Of a stretch of DNA of 14,165 nt, positions 1 to 14,165 are shown piece by piece. This DNA comes from a virus (lineage: Duplodnaviria > Heunggongvirae > Uroviricota > Caudoviricetes). Numbering within the stretch: the stretch's first letter is position 1; the number at the start of each line of letters is the position of its first letter. The notes beneath the pieces are model-generated. The model was given only the letters and a program-made list of their open reading frames with translations. It made no database searches and had not been told where the DNA came from. The translations under genes were made by a program, and so were the position numbers. The stretch is from positions 1 through 14,165 of IMG/VR virus record IMGVR_UViG_2551306525_000004. The stretch is one strand, 5' to 3'.

Positions 1-138
1 TTTGTGTTGCCTTTGTGCAGAAAGCATCACGACGAGCTGCATGCGGATACCGTGGCATTTGAAGAGAAGTATGGCTCCCAGCTGGAGCTGATATTTCGTT
101 TTATCGATCGTGCGCTGGCAATTGGCGTGCTGGCCTGA
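1..138 (+). CDS. 3' end of an unidentified phage gene (partial, runs off the window start)
   Basis: Open frame from position 1 to TGA at 136-138 (...EEKYGSQLELIFRFIDRALAIGVLA*), immediately upstream of Q in the nin-region position. No family recognised. Confidence 0.4.
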   Translation, partial: FVLPLCRKHHDELHADTVAFEEKYGSQLELIFRFIDRALAIGVLA

Positions 139-155
139 TTTTGTGGAGAAAGTTG

Positions 156-533
156 ATGCGTGATATTCAAATGGTTCTGGATCGTTGGGGAGCATGGGCG
201 GCGAGTGATAGTTCAGGAGTAGACTATTCTCCTATAGCTGCTGGGTTTAAAGGGCTTCTTCCCTATACAAGCAAAACACGTCAGGCATGTTCAGATAGTG
301 ATGCATTAATTATTGAAGGTTGTCTTGCTCGTCTAAGGCAAAAAAGGCCGGACGAACATTCGCTTCTTGTTGCCCATTACCTATACGGTATCTCTAAAAG
401 AAAGCTCGCCAAGGCTCGTAAAAAGGATGAGAAACTAATACGCATTGAGATACAGATGGCTGAGGGGTTTATTGATGGCTGCCTATCGATGCTGGAAATT
501 AGTCTAGAGATGGACCCCGAAATTAAAGATTGA
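156..533 (+). CDS. Q: Late-gene antiterminator Q (short QuuD-like Q family)
   Basis: ATG at 156 preceded by GGAG (145-148); frame is open from TTG 141. Product MRDIQMVLDRWGAWAA... resembles the ~125-130-aa Q antiterminators of E. coli lambdoid prophages as I recall them, and it sits upstream of the lysis module. Confidence 0.8.
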   Translation: MRDIQMVLDRWGAWAASDSSGVDYSPIAAGFKGLLPYTSKTRQACSDSDALIIEGCLARLRQKRPDEHSLLVAHYLYGISKRKLAKARKKDEKLIRIEIQMAEGFIDGCLSMLEISLEMDPEIKD

Positions 534-539
534 TTATTG

Positions 540-564
540 AAGCCCGATTACTCGGGCTTTTGTT
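540..564 (+). terminator. Intrinsic terminator-like hairpin between convergent Q and the antisense gene
   Basis: Stem aagcccg (540-546) / cgggctt (553-559), loop attact, followed by T-rich tract. The stop codon of the minus-strand gene (548-550) lies inside the hairpin. Confidence 0.5.
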
Positions 565-1567
565 CCACATCTCGAACATAGAGAATTACTGCTGACTTAA
601 TGTCACCATCGACGTGTTTTGCGTTAATGCTCAAATGTACAGGCTTTCTTTCCCACTCAGCTCGCTGCAATGCTTCTTTGTTTCCGGATTCATCAAGGAA
701 AACATCCTGAACTACGCAGGTTAGACGTTGGTCGGTATCTACGCGTCGGACCTTAACTTTGAAACTCTCTGGGTCAGTATTATTGACTTCTTCAATTCGG
801 TAAATACCATCAATCCTCATTTCTGATGAACGTCTACGAGCATTCGTAACCAACTCTTTCGCCATTTCAGAATCAATAGTAACGCCATCAATTTGAGCGT
901 TATCTGAACGCACAAAGGATTTGACCATTTGGGTTTTAGCGTCATACGACATACGGTCCATGTTATCGAGAAGTGGTTTTTCCGCAATCATTTCTGAAAT
1001 AACCCGCAGGCGTTTAGTTTCTTGCTCGCTCATGATCTGCATAGTCCGGAGATGTTCTTTCTCTCCATCCTTAGCAATTTCTGCAAGGCGAATATCTTTA
1101 CGGTTGTCCAAGAACCGTTTAAATACTGTTACTCCGCCCCAGATGACTGCTGCGCCGAGAACAGTAAACATGATCTCAGTTGCGTTCATTTTACCAACAA
1201 GTTCCTGTGTGAGTTTGGTTAAAAAGCCATCAATGTTGATTTCTACTATTGAAGAACCCTGTTCTACCGTAACTTCTATTTCTAGGGCATCAAGTTCTTC
1301 TTTGGTCAGTTTGCGGACGTCAGGGACACCGTACTTGGCAAGGGCATATGATTTGTTGATTTGAGCTTGCATTTCAACAAATCCCTTCATAACTGAAGGT
1401 GTTAGCGATCTGTTGAATTTTTCACCGGTTAATCTGATGGTAAGGTTTGGCCATCCGTTGAAACTTAAACTGTCAGGTAAACCATAACCATCAAGATAGC
1501 TTTCAAGCAAATCGAAGGCTTGCTGCTCAGATTCAATGTCTACATGAATCTCATCAAACTTATCCAA
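548..1567 (-). CDS. Hypothetical membrane-anchored protein, 339 aa, unknown function (moron; candidate exclusion/defence factor)
   Basis: Long ORF with TTG start at 1567 preceded by GAGGA at 7-nt spacing. One central hydrophobic helix (EIMFTVLGAAVIWGGVTVF) followed by a K/R-rich stretch. AT-rich by eye and antisense to all flanking phage genes. Confidence 0.75.
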   Translation of the reverse strand: MDKFDEIHVDIESEQQAFDLLESYLDGYGLPDSLSFNGWPNLTIRLTGEKFNRSLTPSVMKGFVEMQAQINKSYALAKYGVPDVRKLTKEELDALEIEVTVEQGSSIVEINIDGFLTKLTQELVGKMNATEIMFTVLGAAVIWGGVTVFKRFLDNRKDIRLAEIAKDGEKEHLRTMQIMSEQETKRLRVISEMIAEKPLLDNMDRMSYDAKTQMVKSFVRSDNAQIDGVTIDSEMAKELVTNARRRSSEMRIDGIYRIEEVNNTDPESFKVKVRRVDTDQRLTCVVQDVFLDESGNKEALQRAEWERKPVHLSINAKHVDGDIKSAVILYVRDVEQKPE

Positions 1568-1862
1568 AAATATGTCCTCATTCTAAGCCAACTGTCACCG
1601 TGAGGTTTGGCAACGCCTGCTTTATTTTTCGTTTTAAGCTGTGTGGCAAAAAAATAATGGAAAAACAGATAAAAATCACTAACGCGGTCCGCATTTTCTA
1701 GATTACTGTGTTAAGAGTGGTTACTTCGCCACACAACTTAAACCCGCCGCTGAGCGGTTTTTTTGTACCTGTAAACTTGGTGCAGCACAGTAAACACGCT
1801 GGTGGTCGTGAATACTGACTTTTTATCTTGCTGGCTTTTTAGACAAGAGTTATTGGTATGTC
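1568..1862. promoter_or_regulatory. Divergent intergenic control region between the antisense gene and the HTH-ORF/methylase unit
   Basis: About 300 bp of AT-rich non-coding DNA between divergently oriented genes. Contains a weak hairpin followed by T7 (about 1747-1766). No confident -35/-10 assignment. Confidence 0.3.
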
Positions 1863-1886
1863 ATGTTAACCAGAAGGGAAAAAGAC

Positions 1887-2090
1887 ATGCTAAAACAGCA
1901 AGATATGACAGAAACCGCCGCCGCAGTCCTTCATTTCTTACCTGCTGACAAGTGGGTAACGCCACGCATGATGACGAGAACTACCGGAGTAAGCGAAGCC
2001 CGGTGCCAGTTAATACTGACTCAGTTAGTTCTGGCGGGTCTGGCGAAGGATAACGGCGGGTACGGGAATAAATTCAGACGCTGCCAGTAA
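1887..2090 (+). CDS. Small hypothetical protein, possibly HTH/winged-helix-like
   Basis: ORF is open from ATG 1863, but ATG 1887 has a better SD (AAGGGA, 7-nt spacing). About 68 aa; the segment TPRMMTRTTGVSEARCQLILTQL looks HTH-like. Lies directly upstream of the methylase. Confidence 0.45.
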   Translation: MLKQQDMTETAAAVLHFLPADKWVTPRMMTRTTGVSEARCQLILTQLVLAGLAKDNGGYGNKFRRCQ

Positions 2091-2209
2091 TGGCGGTTTC
2101 CTGCTGTGAAAATGGGCGGCTGGTGGGTGTTGGTAGCACCTGCCAGCCATTCGCTCATGCTTACTGGTCACAAGCGAACCACGGCCCACTGCTTTAGCGC
2201 AAAAGCAGA

Positions 2210-3301
2210 GTGAGCCTACCAGAGTTACGCTTACTGATCCATGAAAATACTGTAAAAATAAACAGTGTTGATTTAATCAACGCTGATTGCCTGCATTTTA
2301 TTCAGTCCCTGCCTGATAACTCCATTGATCTGATTGTTACCGATCCGCCGTACTTCAAAGTGAAGCCCAACGGCTGGGACAATCAGTGGAAAGGGGACGA
2401 AGATTACCTGAAGTGGCTGGACCACTGTCTGGCCCAGTTCTGGCGGGTACTGAAACCAGCCGGAAGCCTTTACCTGTTCTGTGGGCATCGCCTGGCATCT
2501 GATATTGAGATCATGATGCGTGAACGTTTCAACGTGCTTAACCATATCATCTGGGCGAAGCCGTCCGGACGTTGGAATGGGTGTAATAAAGAAAGTCTGC
2601 GCGCATATTTTCCTGCCACAGAGCGCGTTCTGTTTGCTGAACATTACCAGGGGCCATATCGCGGCAAAAGTGACGGCTATGCGGCAAAAGAAAGGGAACT
2701 CAAACAGCACATAATGGCACCGCTGATATCGTATTTCAGGGATGCTCGTGCCGAACTGGGTATAACGGCAAAACAAATTGCCGAAGCCACAGGTAAGAAA
2801 AATATGGTTTCCCACTGGTTTGGTGCCAGTCAGTGGCAGTTGCCGAATGAGGCTGACTACCGGAAGTTACAGGCACTGTTTTCCCGTATAGCGGCAGAGA
2901 AGTTTCAGGAACAACAACTGGAACAACCACACCACCAGTTGGTGGCATCTTATGATTCACTGAATCGCAAATATTCTGAATTGCTGGATGAGTTTAAATC
3001 TCTCCGGCGCTATTTCTCCGTATCAGTCTCCGTGCCTTATACCGATGTCTGGATGCATAAACCCGTTCAGTTCTACCCGGGTAAACATCCGTGTGAGAAA
3101 CCGGCGGATATGCTCAGGCAAATAATCAATGCCAGTAGTCGACCCGGCGATCTGGTTGCTGATTTCTTTATGGGATCCGGTTCCACAATAAAAGCAGCAA
3201 TGGCGCTGGGGCGTCGGGCGTTAGGTGTTGAGCTTGAGACAGAGCGGTTTAATCAGACCATCCAGGAAATCAGTATGTTATCAGCAAATACAATTTTGTG
3301 A
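2210..3301 (+). CDS. Site-specific DNA adenine methyltransferase, beta-class (CcrM/HinfI/YhdJ-like)
   Basis: Motif IV DPPY near the N-terminus (IVTDPPYF) and motif I FxGxG near the C-terminus (DFFMGSGST), preceded by HPCEKP, typical of beta-class N6A methyltransferases. GTG start at 2210. A central insert contains an HTH-like stretch (ELGITAKQIAEATG). Confidence 0.85.
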   Translation: MSLPELRLLIHENTVKINSVDLINADCLHFIQSLPDNSIDLIVTDPPYFKVKPNGWDNQWKGDEDYLKWLDHCLAQFWRVLKPAGSLYLFCGHRLASDIEIMMRERFNVLNHIIWAKPSGRWNGCNKESLRAYFPATERVLFAEHYQGPYRGKSDGYAAKERELKQHIMAPLISYFRDARAELGITAKQIAEATGKKNMVSHWFGASQWQLPNEADYRKLQALFSRIAAEKFQEQQLEQPHHQLVASYDSLNRKYSELLDEFKSLRRYFSVSVSVPYTDVWMHKPVQFYPGKHPCEKPADMLRQIINASSRPGDLVADFFMGSGSTIKAAMALGRRALGVELETERFNQTIQEISMLSANTIL

Positions 3302-3310
3302 ATTAATTCA

Positions 3311-3346
3311 ATTATTGGTGGGATGTCTGTGCCGTATAATGATTAC
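3311..3346 (+). promoter_or_regulatory. Candidate sigma70 promoter (possible late promoter pR'-like)
   Basis: Perfect -10 hexamer TATAAT at 3335-3340 with a weak -35 (ttattg, 3312-3317). Downstream initial region has repeated -10-like TACAGA/TACAGT (3344-3355), which could act as a sigma-dependent pause element. Confidence 0.25.
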
Positions 3347-3544
3347 AGATACAGTGTATCCTGCAATGCAGCAGGGCTGATGTGGTGGGTTGTACATAGC
3401 CTGCAAAGGATTGGCTTCATTAATTCATCGTTGATACAAGCGAGTCACGGTTGACCACGCCAACGGCTCATCGGTAAAAATCCGACACCGTGTCTTCTTA
3501 ACTCACTTATTGTTTCCACCCATGTTTTTGGATACCTGCTGTAG

Positions 3545-3582
3545 CTGTCAGATTAGCGCGATAATCTGACAGTCTTTTTTTT
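3545..3582 (+). terminator. Strong rho-independent terminator
   Basis: 11-bp perfect stem ctgtcagatta / taatctgacag with a 6-nt loop, followed by T8 (3575-3582). Confidence 0.65.
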
Positions 3583-3870
3583 ACAACGAATCCTTCTGAT
3601 CTGCTTTTGCGGGGCTTTTTGTATCCGCTCCATGCCCGGCGTATAAGCGGAGGTTGGTCAGTTTTCTAAAAATTGAAATACCTCACAATTCAGCCAGTTA
3701 ATGGTTGTTTGTCTGGCGAAGAGTTTGTAAATAAAAAAACGCATGGTGAATCCCCCTAAGCGGCGGGGCGAATCAGCAGTCAGTTCTGGGATAATCGCGG
3801 GTTCGTATGCTGATGCCGGACTCACCGGGAGGCACCCGGCACCATGCATCATGGTCATCCCCTTGTATGA

Positions 3871-3896
3871 TACCCCTCTCCGGAGGGGTATTTTTT
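3871..3896 (+). terminator. Strong rho-independent terminator
   Basis: 8-bp GC-rich stem tacccctc / gaggggta with loop tccg, followed by T6 (3891-3896). Confidence 0.6.
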
Positions 3897-4328
3897 GGAT
3901 AAAAAAGCCCGCGCTGGGAGGCACGGGCGGCAAGGAATAAAACGTGAAGAAATTTTCACAGGCGCATAATAATCCGATGTTGCCAGATTTTGCAACTGCA
4001 TCATCTGGTTATTATGTGAGCTGGAAAATCAGATTCTGTATGGACTGAAGCCATGCTGTTATTTAGGGCCAAAGAGCTGGCTTTTTCCCGCCTTCTCTCC
4101 AGTAACGATTAATGAGAAAAGAATGAAATGCTTTTCCTGGGGAGGAGGGCAGTAGAAAAAAGAACCCGCCAGCAAAAATATGGGGGATGAACAGCTTTTG
4201 CTACTCAGGTTGCTGGCGGGTATGGTTCTTCATGAAATAAGAATGTTACGCGGTATTTTTAATGAAAATGATAATTATTGTCAATTGGTTGTGCGTATTT
4301 TTTCATACATGACTGGTAAAGGTGATTC

Positions 4329-4360
4329 AGGCCATCAGAGTTTTGCTGATGGCCTTTTTT
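4329..4360 (+). terminator. Rho-independent terminator immediately upstream of the holin (tR'-like)
   Basis: 10-bp stem aggccatcag / ctgatggcct with a 7-nt loop, followed by T6. Ends 34 nt before the holin ATG. Confidence 0.6.
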
Positions 4361-4393
4361 CTTTCCGGTAGCACAGGTCTGTTGGGGCGGGAT

Positions 4394-4609
4394 ATGTATC
4401 AGATGGAAAAAATATCAACAGGCATTGCCTACGGCACCTCCGCAGGCAGTGCTGGCTACTGGTTTTTACAATGGCTTGATCAGGTTAGTCCGTCTCAGTG
4501 GGCTGCGATTGGTGTACTGGGAAGTCTGGTTCTGGGCTTTCTGACTTATCTGACGAATCTGTACTTCAAAATCAGAGAAGACAGAAGAAAGGCTGCGAGA
4601 GGAGAGTAA
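4394..4609 (+). CDS. S: Class II holin (phage 21 S-like pinholin) with dual-start motif
   Basis: 71 aa beginning [31 protein letters not shown]..., recalled as matching S21 (SAR-type TMD1 plus TMD2). Met1/Met4 dual start is typical of holin/antiholin pairs. The upstream in-frame extension to 4322 was not used because it would span the terminator. Confidence 0.85.
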
Positions 4610-4613
4610 TATA

Positions 4614-4958
4614 ATGGTCCAAAACTATGAAATGATTGTGAAAGGGATCCGCAATTTTGAGAATAAAGTTACGGTAACTTTAGCATTACAGGACAAAGAA
4701 CGCTTTGACGGTGAAATTTTTGACCTGGACATCTCGCTGGACCGTGTTGAAGGTGCCGCGCTGGAGTTTTATGAGGCAGCAGCCAGAAGGAGCATCAGAC
4801 AGGTCTTCCTGGATGTTGCTGCCGGGTTATGTGGAGGGGATGAGCAGTCGCCGGAAAAGCGCCCCATAATTTTAGAGGCGCAGAGTGTGTGGATAACCTA
4901 CAAAGGAAAACTGCCGGGAAGAATTACTGGTTCACTGAAGACTCCGCCGAAATGGTAA
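4614..4958 (+). CDS. Hypothetical protein inserted between holin and endolysin (DUF1327/YdfR-like by position)
   Basis: ATG 4614 with SD GGAGAG at 7-nt spacing, 114 aa. It occupies the holin-endolysin slot that ydfR occupies in the Qin prophage as I recall; the family assignment is not verified. Confidence 0.55.
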   Translation: MVQNYEMIVKGIRNFENKVTVTLALQDKERFDGEIFDLDISLDRVEGAALEFYEAAARRSIRQVFLDVAAGLCGGDEQSPEKRPIILEAQSVWITYKGKLPGRITGSLKTPPKW

Positions 4959-5196
4959 TTTCACCAGCATATTTTTCCTCCAGTAATACCGCCAGCCACT
5001 TGAAAGAATTTTGTTGTTGCTGGGACCATTTGGGATTGATTGATTCAAGCTGGAGCGATGCCAGTGTTGGTTGCATTTGTTCCTTGGGAATTGAGAATGC
5101 CAGATATGAAAATGCGACAGTAAGGGCATTTACATCATCCCGAAGCCTGGAAATGCAGTCGAGCAACTCCTGTAGAGAAATGGTGCTATTGTCCAT
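4924..5196 (-). CDS. Hypothetical small protein (~90 aa), antisense within the lysis cassette
   Basis: ATG at 5196 (minus) preceded by AGAGAGGA at about 6-nt spacing; the frame extends to TTG 5202. Product looks helical and non-repetitive. The 3' end overlaps the convergent 4614-4958 gene by about 35 nt. AT-rich. Confidence 0.45.
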   Translation of the reverse strand: MDNSTISLQELLDCISRLRDDVNALTVAFSYLAFSIPKEQMQPTLASLQLESINPKWSQQQQNSFKWLAVLLEEKYAGEITISAESSVNQ

Positions 5197-5301
5197 AAAC
5201 AATCCTCTCTATTGTATTTAACTATTCCTTGCCTGATTCAACAGGCCGGGACAGATAAACATATCCAGGGTTCAGAAACCGATAAATCCTGATAAATATC
5301 C

Positions 5302-5835
5302 ATGAACGCAAAAATCAGATACGGCCTGTCGGCTGCCGTTCTGGCACTGATTGCCGTCGGTGCGCCTGCGCCTGATATTCTCGACCAGTTTCTGGATGAA
5401 AAAGAAGGTAACCACACAACGGCATACCGCGATGGTTCCGGCATCTGGACCATCTGTCGGGGTGCCACGGTGGTGGATGGAAAACCCGTTGTTCCCGGTA
5501 TGAAACTGTCGAAGGAAAAATGCGACCAGGTTAACGCCATTGAACGGGATAAGGCGCTGGCATGGGTGGAGCGCAATATTAAAGTGCCACTGACCGAACC
5601 ACAGAAAGCGGGTATCGCGTCATTTTGTCCCTATAACATTGGCCCCGGTAAGTGTTTCCCGTCGACGTTTTATAAGCGGCTGAATGCCGGTGATCGTAAA
5701 GGTGCATGCGAGGCGATTCGCTGGTGGATAAAAGATGGTGGGCGCGATTGCCGCATACGTTCAAATAACTGCTATGGACAGGTTATTCGTCGTGACCAGG
5801 AAAGCGCATTAGCCTGTTGGGGGATAGATCAGTGA
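5302..5835 (+). CDS. R: SAR endolysin (phage lysozyme, T4L/R21-like)
   Basis: N-terminal Ala/Gly-rich SAR segment ([16 protein letters not shown]). Catalytic triad spacing E-x8-D-x5-T in [16 protein letters not shown]. 177 aa, followed by Rz. Confidence 0.85.
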
Positions 5836-6293
5836 GCAGAGTCGCCGCGATTATTTATGCTCTGGTTATCTGCATCATCGTCTGCCTGTCATGGGCTGTT
5901 AATCATTACCGTGATAACGCAATCGCCTACAAAGCCCTGCGCGACAAAAATGCCAGAGAACTGAAGCTGGCGAACGCGGCAATTACTGACATGCAGATGC
6001 GTCAGCGTGATGTTGCTGCGCTCGATGCAAAATACACGAAGGAGTTAGCTGATGCGAAAGCTGAAAATGATGCTCTGCGTGATGATGTTGCCGCTGGTCG
6101 TCGTCGGTTGCACATCAAAGCAGTCTGTCAGTCAGTGCGTGAAGCCACCACCGCCTCCGGCGTGGATAATGCAGCCTCCCCCCGACTGGCAGACACCGCT
6201 GAACGGGATTATTTCACCCTCAGAGAGAGGCTGATCACTATGCAAAAACAACTGGAAGGAACCCAGAAGTATATTAATGAGCAGTGCAGATAG
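5832..6293 (+). CDS. Rz: Spanin inner-membrane subunit Rz
   Basis: GTG 5832 overlaps the endolysin stop (GTGA). Product ...[30 protein letters not shown]... matches lambda Rz closely as I recall it. Confidence 0.85.
6052..6234 (+). CDS. Rz1: Spanin outer-membrane lipoprotein subunit Rz1 (embedded in Rz, +1 frame)
   Basis: 60 aa with lipobox LVVVGC and a proline-rich mature part ([15 protein letters not shown]), wholly inside Rz in another frame. Confidence 0.8.
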
Positions 6294-6324
6294 AGTTGCT
6301 CATATCGATGGGCAACTCATGCAA

Positions 6325-6618
6325 TTATTTTGAGCAATACACCCGCGCTTCCAGCGGAGTATAAATGCCAAAAGTGATGAAACCGAGCAATCCATTTACG
6401 AATGTTTGCTGGGTTTCTGTTTTAACCACATTTTCTGCACCACCACAAATTTTTGCTGCATCGACAGTTTTCTTCTGCCCAATTCCCGAAACGAAGAAAT
6501 GATGGGTGATGGTTTCCTTTGGTGTTACTGCTGTCGGTTTGTTTCCAACAGTAAACGTCTGTTGAGCACATCCTGTAATAAGCATTGCCAGAGCGGCAGA
6601 AAACAACATTTTTTTCAT
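6325..6618 (-). CDS. bor: Bor lipoprotein (serum-resistance/envelope lipoprotein)
   Basis: ATG at 6618 (minus) with AGGA SD. Product MKKMLFSAALAMLITGCAQQTFTV... with lipobox, close to lambda Bor as I recall it. Convergent with Rz/Rz1. Confidence 0.85.
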   Translation of the reverse strand: MKKMLFSAALAMLITGCAQQTFTVGNKPTAVTPKETITHHFFVSGIGQKKTVDAAKICGGAENVVKTETQQTFVNGLLGFITFGIYTPLEARVYCSK

Positions 6619-6816
6619 CTTATTATCCTGCATTGTTAAAAACGGCAGAATCCTATGTGACAACAATTAAACGATAGTTAAATGGATTGATGAAAATTAA
6701 AACTACACAGGTGAGCTCAGACGATTGGAGGGAGTTGGGGACACTCAGAATCCTGTAGAATGAAATAAACCGGTCTATCCGTCCATTACCCTTTTAGCTG
6801 CGCTGTATCGTCGCCG

Positions 6817-6881
6817 TATTCCCGCATTAACCATGACCGTAGCCCGACGGGGAATTCCTTCTGCGTGAGTGTGCGGGAATA
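6817..6881. repeat. 10-bp perfect inverted repeat flanking a 45-nt spacer in the bor-upstream non-coding region
   Basis: tattcccgca (6817-6826) and tgcgggaata (6872-6881) are exact reverse complements. Confidence 0.5.
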
Positions 6882-7098
6882 ATTAAAAACGATGCACACC
6901 GGGTTTTTACCGCGTTAATGATTCGCGGATTTATCCCGGTGCGATGGTGGAAGAAACCGGAAGCTGTATTACAGAAAGTGCTACTACTGTATCCCGATGC
7001 GATGTATGTAATGTGAGTCAGATAATGGCACAGGATGTGGTGATGTGGCAGTCTGGAACACAGGATATATTGTCAGAATAAGACCCGTAGGAATAAAA

Positions 7099-7425
7099 AT
7101 GAAAAGACGCCTTTTACTACTTTTTCTGTTATCTGTCCTAGCAGTGGGATGCTCGCAGCAAAAAGCTGATGAGCCCCGGCAATTAGTGACGGTGTATCCA
7201 CGATATCCGGAATATGCTGCAGCAAATTATATCAAGGGGCTGGTTGAGGTTAAGTTCGATATTGGTGCTGATGGGACTGTGACACGGATCGTTTTTCTCC
7301 GCTCAGAGCCTCATAATTTGTTTCGTGATGAAGTGGTGAAGGCCATGGCGAAATGGCGATTTGAAAAGAATCGTCCCTGTCAGGGAGTGAAGAGACAATT
7401 TATCTTTACGCCGTCACGTCCCTGA
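7099..7425 (+). CDS. Lipoprotein with a TonB C-terminal-like domain (moron)
   Basis: ATG 7099 with AGGA SD. Signal peptide plus lipobox (MKRRLLLLFLLSVLAVGCSQQ). Mature part YPRYPEYAAANYIKGLVEVKFDIGADGTVTRIVFLRSEPHNLFRDEVVKAMAKWRFE aligns well with the TonB C-terminal domain as I recall it (YPARAQALRIEGQVKVKFDV...FEREVKNAMRRWRYE). Confidence 0.7.
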   Translation: MKRRLLLLFLLSVLAVGCSQQKADEPRQLVTVYPRYPEYAAANYIKGLVEVKFDIGADGTVTRIVFLRSEPHNLFRDEVVKAMAKWRFEKNRPCQGVKRQFIFTPSRP

Positions 7426-7517
7426 TGCTTCCAGGTAGAGAGGGGCTGGAAGCAGGAGAAAAATGAAAGAGCCAGCGGTTATATTTTTGTCATGGCTGAC
7501 GAGGAATGATGGAAGAA

Positions 7518-7540
7518 GGCGTTGTATGCCACACAACGCC
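7518..7540 (-). terminator. Hairpin 8 nt downstream of the 7548-7727 gene (possible bidirectional terminator)
   Basis: Stem ggcgttgt / acaacgcc with a 7-nt loop. T-rich flanks on both strands but no clean U-tract. Confidence 0.35.
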
Positions 7541-7547
7541 TCACTGT

Positions 7548-7727
7548 TCATTTCTTCTTTTTCTCTAGTGGAACCCGATGAATAAGAGTTGCACTGGTTT
7601 CCGATGAGATGGCGATATACTCGGGCAAAGTATGCTGGCAGTTTTCCAACTGGTCAAAAATACCTGCTCTCGTCTGTTGCAATGCCTGCAGCATGCGGCG
7701 GCAATGCGCCTTGCTTTTGCTAACCAT
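7548..7727 (-). CDS. Hypothetical small protein (59 aa)
   Basis: ATG at 7727 (minus) preceded by a strong SD AGGAAGGA at 4-nt spacing. The longer 117-aa frame overlaps the upstream gene, so the shorter start is preferred. Confidence 0.45.
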   Translation of the reverse strand: MVSKSKAHCRRMLQALQQTRAGIFDQLENCQHTLPEYIAISSETSATLIHRVPLEKKKK

Positions 7728-7788
7728 CTTTCCTTCCTCTATCAGTCGCTGCGTGAACTCATCATGGAATACCAGGTAAATGCGGATG

Positions 7789-8040
7789 TTATCGGTTTTG
7801 GCTACGCAGCATAGTACAAAACGGACAGGTGCATCCCGGGACGGGGGAGGCGTCACATGTCCCTGTGATGGTTGTTCCGGGTAATGCACTGTGTGGGGCA
7901 TAAAAATGTCCGATAATTTTACTTTCTACCGCAGTTAGTTGATTCGTTGGTCCTGGTAGCACATTGGGCGAGGATTTAAATGCCAGGCAACTGAAGGATG
8001 ATGTTGCAAGGGAGATAGCGAGAATATTTCTGATTTTCAT
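7789..8040 (-). CDS. Hypothetical small secreted Cys-containing protein (83 aa)
   Basis: ATG at 8040 (minus) with AGAGG SD. N-terminal signal-peptide-like segment MKIRNILAISLATSSFSCLA. Mature part carries 5 Cys (CDASPVPGCTCPFC). Confidence 0.45.
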   Translation of the reverse strand: MKIRNILAISLATSSFSCLAFKSSPNVLPGPTNQLTAVESKIIGHFYAPHSALPGTTITGTCDASPVPGCTCPFCTMLRSQNR

Positions 8041-8149
8041 TTGATGATGCCTCTGTGTGAAATGACGGTAAACGACGCACTTGTGCCGGCACATAATAGC
8101 AAGCACCATAATAGATCAGATTCGATTCTTGCTGTAAGTGATAATTATT

Positions 8150-8378
8150 CTCGTTTTTCGGGTCCTTTCCGGCGATCCAACAGGCTACGGGGCGGCGACC
8201 TCGCGGGTTTTCGCTATTTATGAAAATTTTCCGGTTTAAGGCGTTTCCGTTCTTCTTCGTCATAACTTAATGTTTTTATTTAAAATACCCTCTGAAAAGA
8301 AAGGAAACGACAGGTGCTGAAAGCGAGCTTTTTGGCCTCTGTCGTTTCCTTTCTCTGTTTTTGTCCGTGGAATGAACA
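8150..8378. other. cos: Lambda-type cos site (cosQ-cosN-cosB); cosN 12-nt cohesive end GGGCGGCGACCT at 8190-8201
   Basis: Sequence ...caggctacg|gggcggcgacct|cgcgggttttcgctatttatgaaaattttccgg... matches the lambda genome ends/cos as I recall them, and Nu1 starts 189 nt downstream. Confidence 0.85.
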
Positions 8379-8898
8379 ATGGAAGTCAACAAAAAGCAGC
8401 TGGCTGACATTTTCGGTGCGAGTATCCGTACCATTCAGAACTGGCAGGAACAGGGAATGCCCGTTCTGCGAGGCGGTGGCAAGGGTAATGAGGTGCTTTA
8501 TGACTCTGCCGCCGTCATAAAATGGTATGCCGAAAGGGATGCTGAAATTGAGAACGAAAAGCTGCGCCGGGAAGTTGAAGAACTGCGGCAGGCCAGCGAG
8601 ACAGATCTCCAGCCAGGGACTATTGAGTACGAACGCCATCGACTTACGCGTGCGCAGGCCGACGCACAGGAGCTGAAAAATGCCAGAGACTCCGCTGAAG
8701 TGGTGGAAACCGCATTCTGTACTTTCGTGCTGTCGCGGATCGCAGGTGAAATTGCCAGTATTCTCGACGGGATCCCCCTGTCGGTGCAGCGGCGTTTTCC
8801 GGAACTGGAAAACCGACATGTTGATTTCCTGAAACGGGATATCATCAAAGCCATGAACAAAGCAGCCGCGCTGGATGAACTGATACCGGGGTTGCTGA

Positions 8899-8924
<26 letters not shown>
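8379..8924 (+). CDS. nu1: Terminase small subunit Nu1
   Basis: 181 aa MEVNKKQLADIFGASIRTIQNWQEQGMPVLRGGGKGNEVLYDSAAVIKWYAERD..., nearly identical to lambda gpNu1 as I recall it. Confidence 0.95.
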
Positions 8925-12605
<3,681 letters not shown>

Positions 12606-12625
<20 letters not shown>

Positions 12626-12935
12626 TCTCCCGCATATTGCCAGCATGGCTTTTAATGAGCCGCTGATGCTTGAACCCGCCTATGCGCGGGTTTTCTTTTG
12701 TGCGCTTGCAGGCCAGCTTGGGATCAGCCGCCTGACGGATGCAGTATCCGGCGACAGCCTGACTGCCGGAGAGGCACCCGCGGCGCTGGCGTTATCCGGT
12801 GATGATGACGGACCACGACAGGCCCGCAGTTATCAGGTCATGAACGGCATCGCCGTGCTGCCGGTGTCCGGTACGCTGGTCAGCCGGACGCGGGCGCTGC
12901 AGCCGTATTCGGGAATATCTTCAGTCCCATACTGA
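12606..12935 (+). pseudogene. C: Truncated gene C (head protease/scaffold); only about 103 N-terminal codons of lambda-like sequence, then out-of-context sequence to a stop
   Basis: GTG 12606, product MTAELRNLPHIASMAFNEPLMLEPAYARVFFCALAGQLGIS...RALQPYSG matches the lambda gpC N-terminus (full length about 439 aa). Homology stops near 12916 and the frame ends at 12935. Confidence 0.8.
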
Positions 12936-12936
12936 T

Positions 12937-13071
12937 ATGCCCGGCAACGATGACCTGAAGGGCATTAACGTGAAATACCGTTATGAGTTTACGGACACGC
13001 TGGGGATGGTGACGTCATTCAGCTATGCAGAAGACAAGAATCGCCAGCTGACTCATTACAGCGATAGCCGT
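12937..13071 (+). pseudogene. lom: Internal fragment of a lom-like (Ail/Lom/PagC family) outer-membrane protein gene
   Basis: Translation PGNDDLKGINVKYRYEFTDTLGMVTSFSYAEDKNRQLTHYSD matches an internal segment of lambda Lom (VPGSDDLNGINVKYRYEFTDTLGLVTSFSYAGDKNRQLTRYSD) as I recall it. No signal peptide and no C-terminus. Confidence 0.6.
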
Positions 13072-13245
13072 TCTGACGGTACTCATCCCCGCGCCAATCT
13101 GGCGGGCAATGGTTTCAATCGATGGCCAGCACACACCTTCGTCATTACTGAAATCAGCCAGGCGGGCCATAATTGCCACGCTGGATAATTTCATGCCTGA
13201 CGCTGCGCAACCATCCCATACATAGCCGGTTAATTTAGTGCTCAT
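13015..13245 (-). pseudogene. Truncated HTH (HTH_36-like) replication/regulatory gene N-terminus, e14 ymfN-like
   Basis: First ~58 codons (MSTKLTGYVWDGCAASGMKLSSVAIMARLADFSNDEGVCWPSIETIARQIGAGMSTVR) look like the HTH N-terminus of phage replication-initiation proteins. The remaining 18 codons are antisense of the lom fragment, so the gene is cut at about 13071/13072. Confidence 0.5.
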
Positions 13246-13254
13246 GACCGACCT

Positions 13255-13593
13255 CTATTTCCCTGAATTTACGACGAAACTGTTCGAGCGGACTGAAGCA
13301 CTCATGCTCATAGCCTTCGCGGAGGTAGATAACCCGTTGTGTTTCCGGTTCCCAACGAATGACTCTGACGGGCACTCCGTAGTGATCTTTGAACCAGCGG
13401 TTAACTTGTCGCAAAGGACTGTCTCCTTCTGCCGGTTGAAATCCCCCACAGCCCACTCTGCAAAGCTGTGGGTTACAATTTCCCTGTCACCTGGTACATT
13501 CACTGCATAGCAATATTCCACCTTCGCTTTTCCACCCGGTACAGGAAGCGCAATCAGTTGCGAGCGACGGTAGTGTGTTGTTAAACTGTTCAT
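13255..13593 (-). CDS. Hypothetical protein, 112 aa (e14 ymfM-like by size and position)
   Basis: ATG 13593 overlaps the stop of the upstream gene (ATGA). The size and the 189-aa / 112-aa / HTH gene order match e14 ymfL-ymfM-ymfN as I recall. The C-terminal half is low-complexity and an alternative frame overlaps it. Confidence 0.45.
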
Positions 13594-14159
13594 GCGTTAG
13601 TTTCTCCACAACCAGAAGCAATCGACGCCACGACGCCCGGAGCTGCACACTCGCGGGCGTCATTACTTTCTGAAATGCAAAAGATTTTGTAGACCAGTGC
13701 TGCATGCTCCTGCAGCTTCGAAATTGAGAGATACAGCTCGTCGTTAATTGCTGTCTTCTCATGCGGTTCCACTACACCGTCTTCGATTGCTGAACGAATC
13801 TGTTTTGAATAACTGCCGATCTGTTCAATGACTTCCAGCAGACGCTGGTTAATATCGGCGTTGTCCACATCCTCGACGTCAGGAAGCGACACAAAGACGC
13901 CATTTGCAGACTGCGCCACAGCATCAGCAATGAAGTGAGTGCCACCAGCACGCTGTAAAACCATTGCCCATCCCAGCGGGAAAATCTGATCGCCATCTGC
14001 ACGAAGGCGGTTGAATAAAGCGTTTTCTGTTACATCGAGCCAGTCAGCCGCTTCAGCGTAACCACCCGGCAACGCCGCGATAGTTTTTCTGACAGCTTTC
14101 ACGTACCACTCAGGCTGTTTTTCTATTTTCCAGTGATGCTTACCCACGATTAGCCTCAT
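13590..14159 (-). CDS. Phage CII-like regulatory protein (CP76-type; e14 ymfL-like), 189 aa
   Basis: Full-length [61 protein letters not shown]...; the family assignment is from memory. Its promoter lies outside the window. Confidence 0.6.
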
Positions 14160-14165
14160 CGTTGT

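Follow-up and report, generated by a model that had tools for sequence, protein, structure and literature searches.

An optional antisense gene that separates ydfR from the lysozyme gene in a lambdoid prophage of E. coli is probably a protein-coding moron

The DNA analysed here (14,165 nt; positions 1 to 14,165 of IMG/VR record IMGVR_UViG_2551306525_000004; hereafter the window) represents the late region of a lambdoid prophage of E. coli. The RefSeq annotation of E. coli APEC O78 supplied the gene order, and positions 4600–5320 were found by nucleotide comparison to be 100% identical in that strain and in many further strains. The plus strand carries a Q antiterminator gene (141–533), a DNA methyltransferase gene (2210–3301), a phage 21-type class II holin gene (4394–4609), ydfR in its 114-aa form (4614–4958; DUF1327, Pfam E = 1.9e-42), a SAR-type phage lysozyme gene (5302–5835; the endolysin gene of the original prediction) and Rz/Rz1 (5832–6293), and a DNA-packaging (small terminase) gene is among those further right. 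The C-terminal third of ydfR varies from prophage to prophage. The minus strand carries a hypothetical gene of 339 aa (548–1567), iss/bor (6325–6618; phrog_260) and, between ydfR and the lysozyme gene, the 90-aa gene considered here (4924–5196). The product of this last gene is annotated by RefSeq as a hypothetical protein (WP_000370549.1), by UniRef under the name Ybl58, which is used below, and by PHROG as phrog_2411, of unknown function. An Rfam scan of the window gave STnc100 at 3712–3900 as its sole match.

The Ybl58 ORF (273 nt) runs on the minus strand from an ATG at 5196 to a TAA at 4924–4926. The mechanically compiled ORF list extends it to 4924..5202 (92 aa, minus strand) from an in-frame TTG two codons 5' of this ATG; RefSeq WP_000370549.1 takes the ATG at 5196 as the start, giving 90 aa. 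A Shine-Dalgarno sequence (AGAGAGGA; 5203–5210, minus strand) is located 6 nt 5' of the ATG. Of 11 phage-type variants, 10 keep the start region GAGGATT(G/A)TTTATG, and AAGGATT is found in the L012 group. The ORF converges on ydfR and overlaps its 3' end by exactly 35 nt (4924–4958). The ORF has a G+C content of 44.3% and the variable module that contains it (4866–5257) one of 43.4%; the lysis genes are richer, with 52.6% in lysozyme, 51.5% in Rz, 49.2% in the conserved portion of ydfR and 47.4% in the holin gene. Ybl58 is one of three AT-rich minus-strand genes in the late region of the window, the others being iss/bor (41.8% G+C) and the 339-aa ORF (42.0%). The original prediction of a minus-strand ORF of about 90 aa with a good Shine-Dalgarno sequence, placed between the DUF1327 gene and the endolysin gene, overlapping the former convergently by about 35 nt and AT-richer than the neighbouring lysis genes, is thus confirmed in each of these particulars. 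Its accompanying statement that antisense genes are uncommon in a late lysis operon fits this phage group poorly: the window itself holds two more minus-strand genes, iss/bor and the 339-aa ORF, and other E. coli prophages bear a different antisense ORF in the slot between ydfR and lysozyme.

Boundaries of the inserted DNA were mapped by comparison with prophages that have no antisense gene at this position. Homology between the window and the prophage of CREC-532 (locus L031) covers 4403–4953 and 5246–5846, which delimits an optional cassette at 4954–5245 (292 nt in the window, 19 nt in L031) consisting of Ybl58 codons 1–81 and about 49 nt upstream. The ydfR-lysozyme spacers of L031 and of locus L032 (2013C-3342) measure 63 and 50 nt, respectively, and contain no antisense gene; ydfR at both loci is of the same 114–116-aa form, and its tail (...GKLPGRITGSLKTPP...) matches that of the window. 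Homology to K-12 Qin spans 4390–4819 and resumes at 5292; in Qin, ydfR overlaps rrrQ by 4 nt without any spacer, versus a distance of 343 nt from the ydfR stop to the lysozyme gene in the window. Of 5426 complete E. coli genomes, about 1053 had the full cassette; E. coli B REL606 is one of them, its Rac region containing a 98.8% identical Ybl58 copy (NC_012967.1 1417152–1417424, minus strand, locus tag ECB_RS07100).

Codons 82–90 of Ybl58 (4927–4953), the stop codon and the 35-nt overlap are positioned within ydfR-tail sequence that is also found in cassette-less prophages, and because that sequence is shared the overlap looks like a by-product of cassette insertion (or loss) and not like regulatory design. 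The ORF would leave the cassette and run through the antisense strand of the existing ydfR tail to the first stop. The nine residues encoded there coincide with the disordered tail of the AlphaFold prediction and are the most variable part among homologues.

The same slot is occupied differently in prophages of the NRG 857C type (about 102 genomes, plus phage Perceval), in which the window's segment 4866–5257 is exchanged for a module of the same size carrying a 79-aa antisense ORF, phrog_21218. This ORF resembles Ybl58 in slot, strand and size, its module (about 390 nt) has the same conserved flanks and the same downstream hairpin, and yet it is unrelated to Ybl58 (hhalign probability 0.3%, no detectable homology) and roughly tenfold less frequent among complete E. 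coli genomes (102 versus 1053 with the Ybl58 cassette). Judged from these alignments, the ydfR-lysozyme slot is evidently a recurrent site for small antisense cassettes, since an unrelated antisense ORF is found there in the NRG 857C type. Within the Ybl58-bearing group, the gene persists at loci where ydfR has lost its N-terminal domain, it is kept beside a replaced endolysin in Stx2k phages, and the arrangement in phage Chlobot, an environmental phage isolate, is identical to that of the window.

The length of the ORF alone was not significant, as several unannotated ORFs of 90–112 codons occur in the window. Selection was assessed on nine distinct nucleotide variants (82–100% identity) from E. 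coli chromosomes, phages and assemblies. The Ybl58 frame was free of stops in all nine, pN/pS was 0.33, and variable sites numbered 24/18/44 at codon positions 1/2/3. Synonymous sites are free to change, because pairwise dS reached 0.67. In the subset of six loci in which all four genes were comparable, pN/pS was 0.38 for Ybl58, 0.38 for ydfR, 0.19 for the holin and 0.12 for lysozyme. A plus-strand ORF over the same DNA (4889–5221) was rejected as a shadow ORF; it contains stops in 6 of the 9 variants, and it mimics a low pN/pS because third positions are common to both frames. Intact copies were counted in 80 IMG/VR viral contigs and amounted to 77/80 for Ybl58, 77/79 for lysozyme and 76/78 for the holin; frameshifted and nonsense copies of Ybl58 occur as a minority. 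The original prediction had named absence or loss of frame in syntenic prophages as grounds for giving up the gene. Absence was indeed seen in many of them, the gene being optional, but the ORF is in frame in about 96% of the copies present. The protein matches the phrog_2411 profile with E = 3.5e-59 (residues 1–90 of a 90-position profile), as do all 13 diverse homologues tested, and the exact Ybl58 sequence is found on at least about 1000 contigs according to its UniRef record.

The structure of Ybl58 was predicted with AlphaFold2 from a ten-sequence alignment (mean pLDDT 83.8; 62 residues at or above 90). Helices were predicted at residues 8–34, 38–52 and 59–76, with residues 81–90 disordered, bearing out the non-repetitive helical product that had been proposed from the ORF translation. 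The protein has a pI of 4.4 and a net charge of -5.5, and its highest 19-residue hydropathy (0.88) is too low for a membrane segment. Ybl58 is accordingly described as a soluble, acidic protein of roughly 10 kDa that is predicted to form a three-helix bundle. Besides the initiator Met, only three residues are invariant in the family (Y31, L32 and E51), and no residue pattern suggesting catalysis was found in the family alignment. Sequence searches of Pfam, NCBIfam, PADLOC and the PDB returned no credible match to Ybl58; with PADLOC the window protein itself had no match, and the best hit (E = 0.0049, to a candidate model) came from 1 of 13 homologues. The homology and structure search called for by the original prediction thus yielded the phrog_2411 family and distant homologues, but neither a Pfam or NCBIfam family nor a solved structure. 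No paper naming Ybl58, phrog_2411 or the RefSeq accessions was found in the literature searched. Homologues of greater length (108–146 aa) were inspected for informative domain fusions and were found to be frameshift read-throughs instead. No partner gene for the family was conserved across the genomic contexts compared. These properties point to a small protein-binding regulator more readily than to an enzyme, a membrane protein or a component of a toxin-antitoxin system.

A profile search of 1.84 billion representative proteins, together with a word-indexed search, recovered members down to about 30% identity, and the family comprises 125 proteins at E ≤ 0.01 with the conserved core ELL..I..LR..VN.L..AFSYLAFS......TI.AL.FES. 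Distant members were found in Citrobacter (62% identity), Serratia, Chania, Gibbsiella, Chimaeribacter, Sodalis and Acerihabitans, and a scan of GTDB species representatives added one locus, in Escherichia ruysiae. In a Citrobacter prophage the gene is upstream of a different holin gene, and a copy on an IncF plasmid (57% identity) is downstream of an autotransporter gene amid IS remnants. The homologue in Sodalis is chromosomal, as are those of Serratia and Chimaeribacter (30–40% identity), and in S. marcescens, S. rubidaea and Chimaeribacter the gene order is fixed as pyrC-dinI-X-bssS-solA, where X is the Ybl58 homologue. The Serratia gene is 3' of the terminator belonging to dinI and has a Shine-Dalgarno sequence of its own. 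DinI, BssS and similar connector-type proteins are like Ybl58 in size (80–95 aa), in solubility and in being encoded as single-gene units, but DinI and BssS, although direct neighbours of the Serratia orthologue, are not homologous to Ybl58 (hhalign probability 0.07% for Serratia DinI and 0.1% for Serratia BssS). Any functional resemblance to BssS or DinI argued from size and neighbourhood would be a guess by analogy, and placement between dinI and bssS in Serratia is only a hint toward stress or biofilm physiology.

Signals for expression were sought on the minus strand at the Ybl58 locus. A consensus scan returned neither a sigma-70 promoter nor a terminator there. A relaxed scan returned two weak promoter candidates on this strand. 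One, TTGAAT-19 nt-TACAAT (5211–5241), lies within the cassette, with an overlong spacer and a -10 element that ends only 14 nt before the ATG. The other, TTTATC-17 nt-TATGTT (5258–5286; 7/12 matches), is in the conserved lysozyme leader and was found in all phage-type variants. Below the threshold of the consensus scan, a candidate weak intrinsic terminator (GCGCCUC-N9-GGGGCGC followed by UUUU; 4855–4881, minus strand) begins 42 nt past the Ybl58 stop, inside the ydfR coding sequence. This hairpin was kept in all gene-bearing variants, mostly by G-U wobble changes and with one mismatch (L006), and it is also present in the NRG 857C type (with a different loop) and in the cassette-less L031; it is at most a terminator candidate. 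No LexA box (CTGT-N8-ACAG) was seen by eye in the phage Ybl58 upstream region or in the alignment of the Serratia intergenic region between dinI and the gene, and Rfam gave no RNA family at the Ybl58 locus. From its architecture and the general behaviour of morons, we infer that Ybl58 would be transcribed on its own, mainly in the lysogen, from a weak promoter within the 50–90 nt upstream. Expression mainly from the lysogen is a reasonable expectation, because the gene behaves as an independent accessory unit that faces against late transcription.

Selection, integrity, fold and distant relatives provide four independent grounds on which the Ybl58 ORF is a genuine protein-coding gene under purifying selection, though one that was already catalogued and is no discovery as such. 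The contrary view, that the ORF is non-functional and either arose by chance or is a decaying prophage remnant, could draw on the unannotated ORFs of like length in the window and on the minority of frameshifted or nonsense copies; against the frame-specific purifying selection, the confident fold prediction, a frequency of intact copies on a par with the neighbouring lysis genes and the existence of distant homologues in other genera, where the chromosomal gene order around them is conserved, it is extremely improbable, and the homologues, selection and integrity already effectively refute it. A different possibility is that the ORF is secondary and that a cis-antisense RNA pairs with late mRNA at the ydfR 3' end and the lysozyme leader, so that RNase III cleavage or transcriptional collision sets the holin/endolysin ratio or the timing of lysis. 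Any minus-strand transcript of the gene would match the late transcript with full complementarity across 273 nt or more, 35 nt or more of them in ydfR, and the unrelated NRG 857C-type cassette in the slot is likewise antisense, so that orientation and not sequence is the shared feature. A precedent exists in the P22 ant moron, for which an effect on read-through into the late gene that follows it has been reported (PMC2629481). The substitutions in Ybl58 are nonetheless of the protein type, with third positions the most variable, and homologues of 30–57% identity away from lysis genes conserve the protein and not the DNA, which is not the behaviour of a non-coding RNA regulator such as P22 sar or lambda OOP. 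Both promoter candidates and the ORF end at or before 5286 and predicted transcripts start below about 5255, so that complementarity, even from the farther candidate, leaves a gap of 40 nt or more to the lysozyme start (5302); the transcript would cover only the 3' end of ydfR, and not the ribosome-binding site or start of a regulated gene. Moreover, many prophages have a tight ydfR-lysozyme junction without any cassette, and the minus-strand promoter candidates are only weak. An RNA-level role appears unlikely from the coding substitution pattern, the free synonymous sites and the absence of any overlap with the start of the lysozyme gene, and the cis-antisense mechanism as a whole is very improbable. 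The earlier idea of antisense-RNA control of lysis timing is left without support by the pN/pS, the codon-position pattern and the dS values given above.

The protein itself might instead act on lysis or exclude superinfecting phages; through cytoplasmic binding to the pinholin, to YdfR or to the precursor of the SAR endolysin, it would delay lysis in the lysogen or block lysis or growth of related incoming phages. The order ydfR-gene-lysozyme was found in 80/80 IMG/VR loci, with the holin gene as well in 78/80, the linkage to holin and ydfR outlasts endolysin replacement, and the Citrobacter copy also adjoins a holin gene. Small acidic phage proteins are, besides, often inhibitors. The orthologues of Serratia, Chimaeribacter and Sodalis and the plasmid copy nevertheless have no lysis genes nearby, no anti-phage defence family was credibly matched (best PADLOC E of 0.005, from 1 of 13 members), the gene is kept despite deletion of the YdfR N-terminal domain, and an environmental phage isolate carries it unchanged. 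There is also no hydrophobic segment of membrane-spanning length, for which reason access to the periplasm, the site of the SAR endolysin, is not expected. Antiholins and lysis-inhibition proteins such as lambda S107, phage 21 S71 and T4 RI are membrane or periplasmic proteins bearing a transmembrane segment or signal sequence, or stem from an alternative start of the holin gene; Ybl58, a separate gene on the opposite strand with the hydropathy maximum, net charge and all-helical prediction given above, does not fit that description. It has no homology to lysis proteins, and prophages lacking the cassette keep complete lysis genes. We consider this explanation improbable. A dedicated lysis role is likewise made to appear unlikely by the non-lysis homologues and by the contexts with a YdfR deletion, with a replaced endolysin and in Chlobot; the suggestion of an anti-lysis factor, made in the original prediction, finds no support in homologues that lie outside lysis cassettes in Serratia, Chimaeribacter, Sodalis and the IncF plasmid. 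A variant of the same thought treats the ydfR-lysozyme junction, with conserved flanks as its limits, as a dedicated exchange site for small antisense cassettes (phrog_2411 and phrog_21218) and Ybl58 as a lysogen-expressed factor cooperating with its neighbours. YdfR reportedly binds RNase E, at its catalytic half, through the N-terminal domain (PMC13232886), and Ybl58 might bind YdfR or the cytoplasmic tail of the pinholin; it would then tune late-mRNA decay or lysis timing or exclude related phages, and the Serratia copy would be a domesticated one. Against this variant, to which we give little credence, stand the homologues in non-lysis contexts and the persistence of the gene at loci where YdfR has lost its N-terminal domain.

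The reading we prefer, at a probability of roughly 0.8, is that Ybl58 is a protein-coding moron and not a regulator of lysis, a moron being an accessory gene inserted into a phage operon (PMC2629481). It is present in some and absent from other syntenic phages (Qin, L031 and L032 are without it), and its composition is unlike that of the flanking genes (43.4–44.3% versus 47–53% G+C for the lysis genes). The gene sits in the lambdoid late operon between ydfR and lysozyme, pointing against late transcription. In this moron model its product would probably bind a host protein, as a small regulator or connector that acts on the stress or biofilm physiology of the host and not as an enzyme, a membrane protein or a component of the lysis clock; should transcription of the gene alter lysozyme expression, this would be incidental. 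Each specific mode of action that might be assigned to Ybl58 is doubtful at best.

The closest comparison is with morons of the lambda bor/iss type, which like Ybl58 are single small counter-oriented genes beside lambdoid lysis genes, AT-richer than their neighbours (41.8% G+C versus 44.3% for Ybl58) and found in only some related phages. Expression of bor occurs from the prophage. Bor/Iss, however, is an outer-membrane lipoprotein with a serum-resistance phenotype, whereas Ybl58 is acidic, helical and without a membrane-spanning segment, and the two have no sequence relationship and belong to different PHROG families. The P22 ant moron, with its sar antisense RNA, resembles the Ybl58 cassette as a variable late-operon insert with genes on the opposite strand; the P22 region, though, holds repressors, an antirepressor and a true non-coding antisense RNA, in contrast to the one gene here, which has a coding substitution pattern.

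Ybl58 is thus an ordinary kind of object, a moron, and the tempting account of an antisense regulator of lysis is removed. What is new here is modest, namely the mapped boundaries of the cassette, the explanation of the overlap, the finding that the slot also houses an unrelated cassette and the link to a syntenic chromosomal family in the Serratia group. Should Ybl58 alter host stress or biofilm behaviour, it would be one more lysogenic-conversion factor, which would be useful and unsurprising. The family is widespread and has a conserved chromosomal copy in Serratia, yet it has no Pfam model or solved structure. It is found in about one in five complete E. coli genomes, including REL606 and genomes with Stx2-converting prophages.

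The slot between ydfR and the lysozyme gene, which in the window holds the 90-aa Ybl58 gene (phrog_2411; 4924-5196, minus strand), was occupied in E. coli NRG 857C by an unrelated antisense ORF of 79 aa (WP_001168526.1, phrog_21218; comparison locus L004, 1671-1910, minus strand). The phrog_21218 ORF was found in this same slot in ~102 complete E. coli genomes and was also carried by phage Perceval (OV696612.1); its flanks were the same as those of the Ybl58 gene, as was the downstream hairpin, a candidate weak terminator inside ydfR (window 4855-4881). An AT-rich iss/bor lipoprotein gene (phrog_260; G+C 41.8%) was located directly after Rz at 6325-6618 on the minus strand, and its antisense position beside the lysis genes shows that antisense accessory genes are usual there in this phage group. 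A second antisense accessory gene of the late region is a 339-aa hypothetical gene at 548-1567 on the minus strand (WP_000357056.1; phrog_6191, unknown function; G+C 42%). This gene was convergent with the Q antiterminator gene, the end of which lay 15 nt from its stop codon.

The comparison of YdfR covered the window and loci L030, L004, L031 and L032. The N-terminal 70 residues were conserved among K-12 Qin, NRG 857C and the window, and the C-terminal third, from about residue 70 on (window 4820-4958, plus strand), was completely different in each. A 2026 paper (PMC13232886) assigned binding of the RNase E catalytic half to residues 1-72 of K-12 YdfR and described RNA binding by YdfR as possible.

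Downstream of the unit of holin, ydfR and the Ybl58 gene, Stx2k-type phages (phiSTEC1575-Stx2k and relatives; L009, L024, L023) carried an additional, unrelated set of lysis genes (Phage_holin_8, Phage_holin_3_7 and an M15 peptidase), and stx2AB lay ~1 kb upstream of the holin. An IS66 element was inserted ~45 nt upstream of the Ybl58 ATG in L023, and the ORF was still intact. The ydfR N-terminal domain was deleted in L012-L014 (Logan assemblies SRR11015012 and others), with the ydfR tail and the Ybl58 gene retained; a ParD/ParE-like toxin-antitoxin pair followed the lysozyme gene at the expected place of Rz. A Citrobacter freundii prophage encoded an 83-aa homologue with 62% identity (L016, 5001-5252, plus strand), likewise antisense in the late region and upstream of a different holin (Phage_holin_2_3). 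As with the window gene, there was an overlap with the 3' end of a small convergent gene, here of 14 nt.

Orthologues of 89-93 aa (35-39% identity) were chromosomal in Serratia and Chimaeribacter (L015, 5001-5282; L026/L027, 4001-4279; L028/L029, 4001-4270), where they occupied the position X in the fixed order rne...pyrC-dinI-X-bssS-solA, each with its own SD and 3' of the intrinsic terminator of dinI. A plasmid copy with 57% identity was present on p4422IncF (NZ_CP076283.1; L002, 2960-3238, minus strand). It lacked phage context and was flanked by a large autotransporter gene upstream on the same strand and by IS and transposase remnants on the other side.

An Rfam match to the sRNA family STnc100 (RF02076) was located at 3712-3900 on the plus strand, between the methyltransferase and holin genes; it covered the full model and scored 114.5 bits (gathering score 47). 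Two ORFs of spurious appearance, at 3658-3933 (minus strand) and 3743-3940 (plus strand), overlapped the match. A strong terminator-like hairpin at 4329-4355 (plus strand; 10 pairs, then TTTTTTCTTTC) may be a tR'-like site that is read through by Q-modified polymerase; it ended 39 nt 5' of the holin start (4394).
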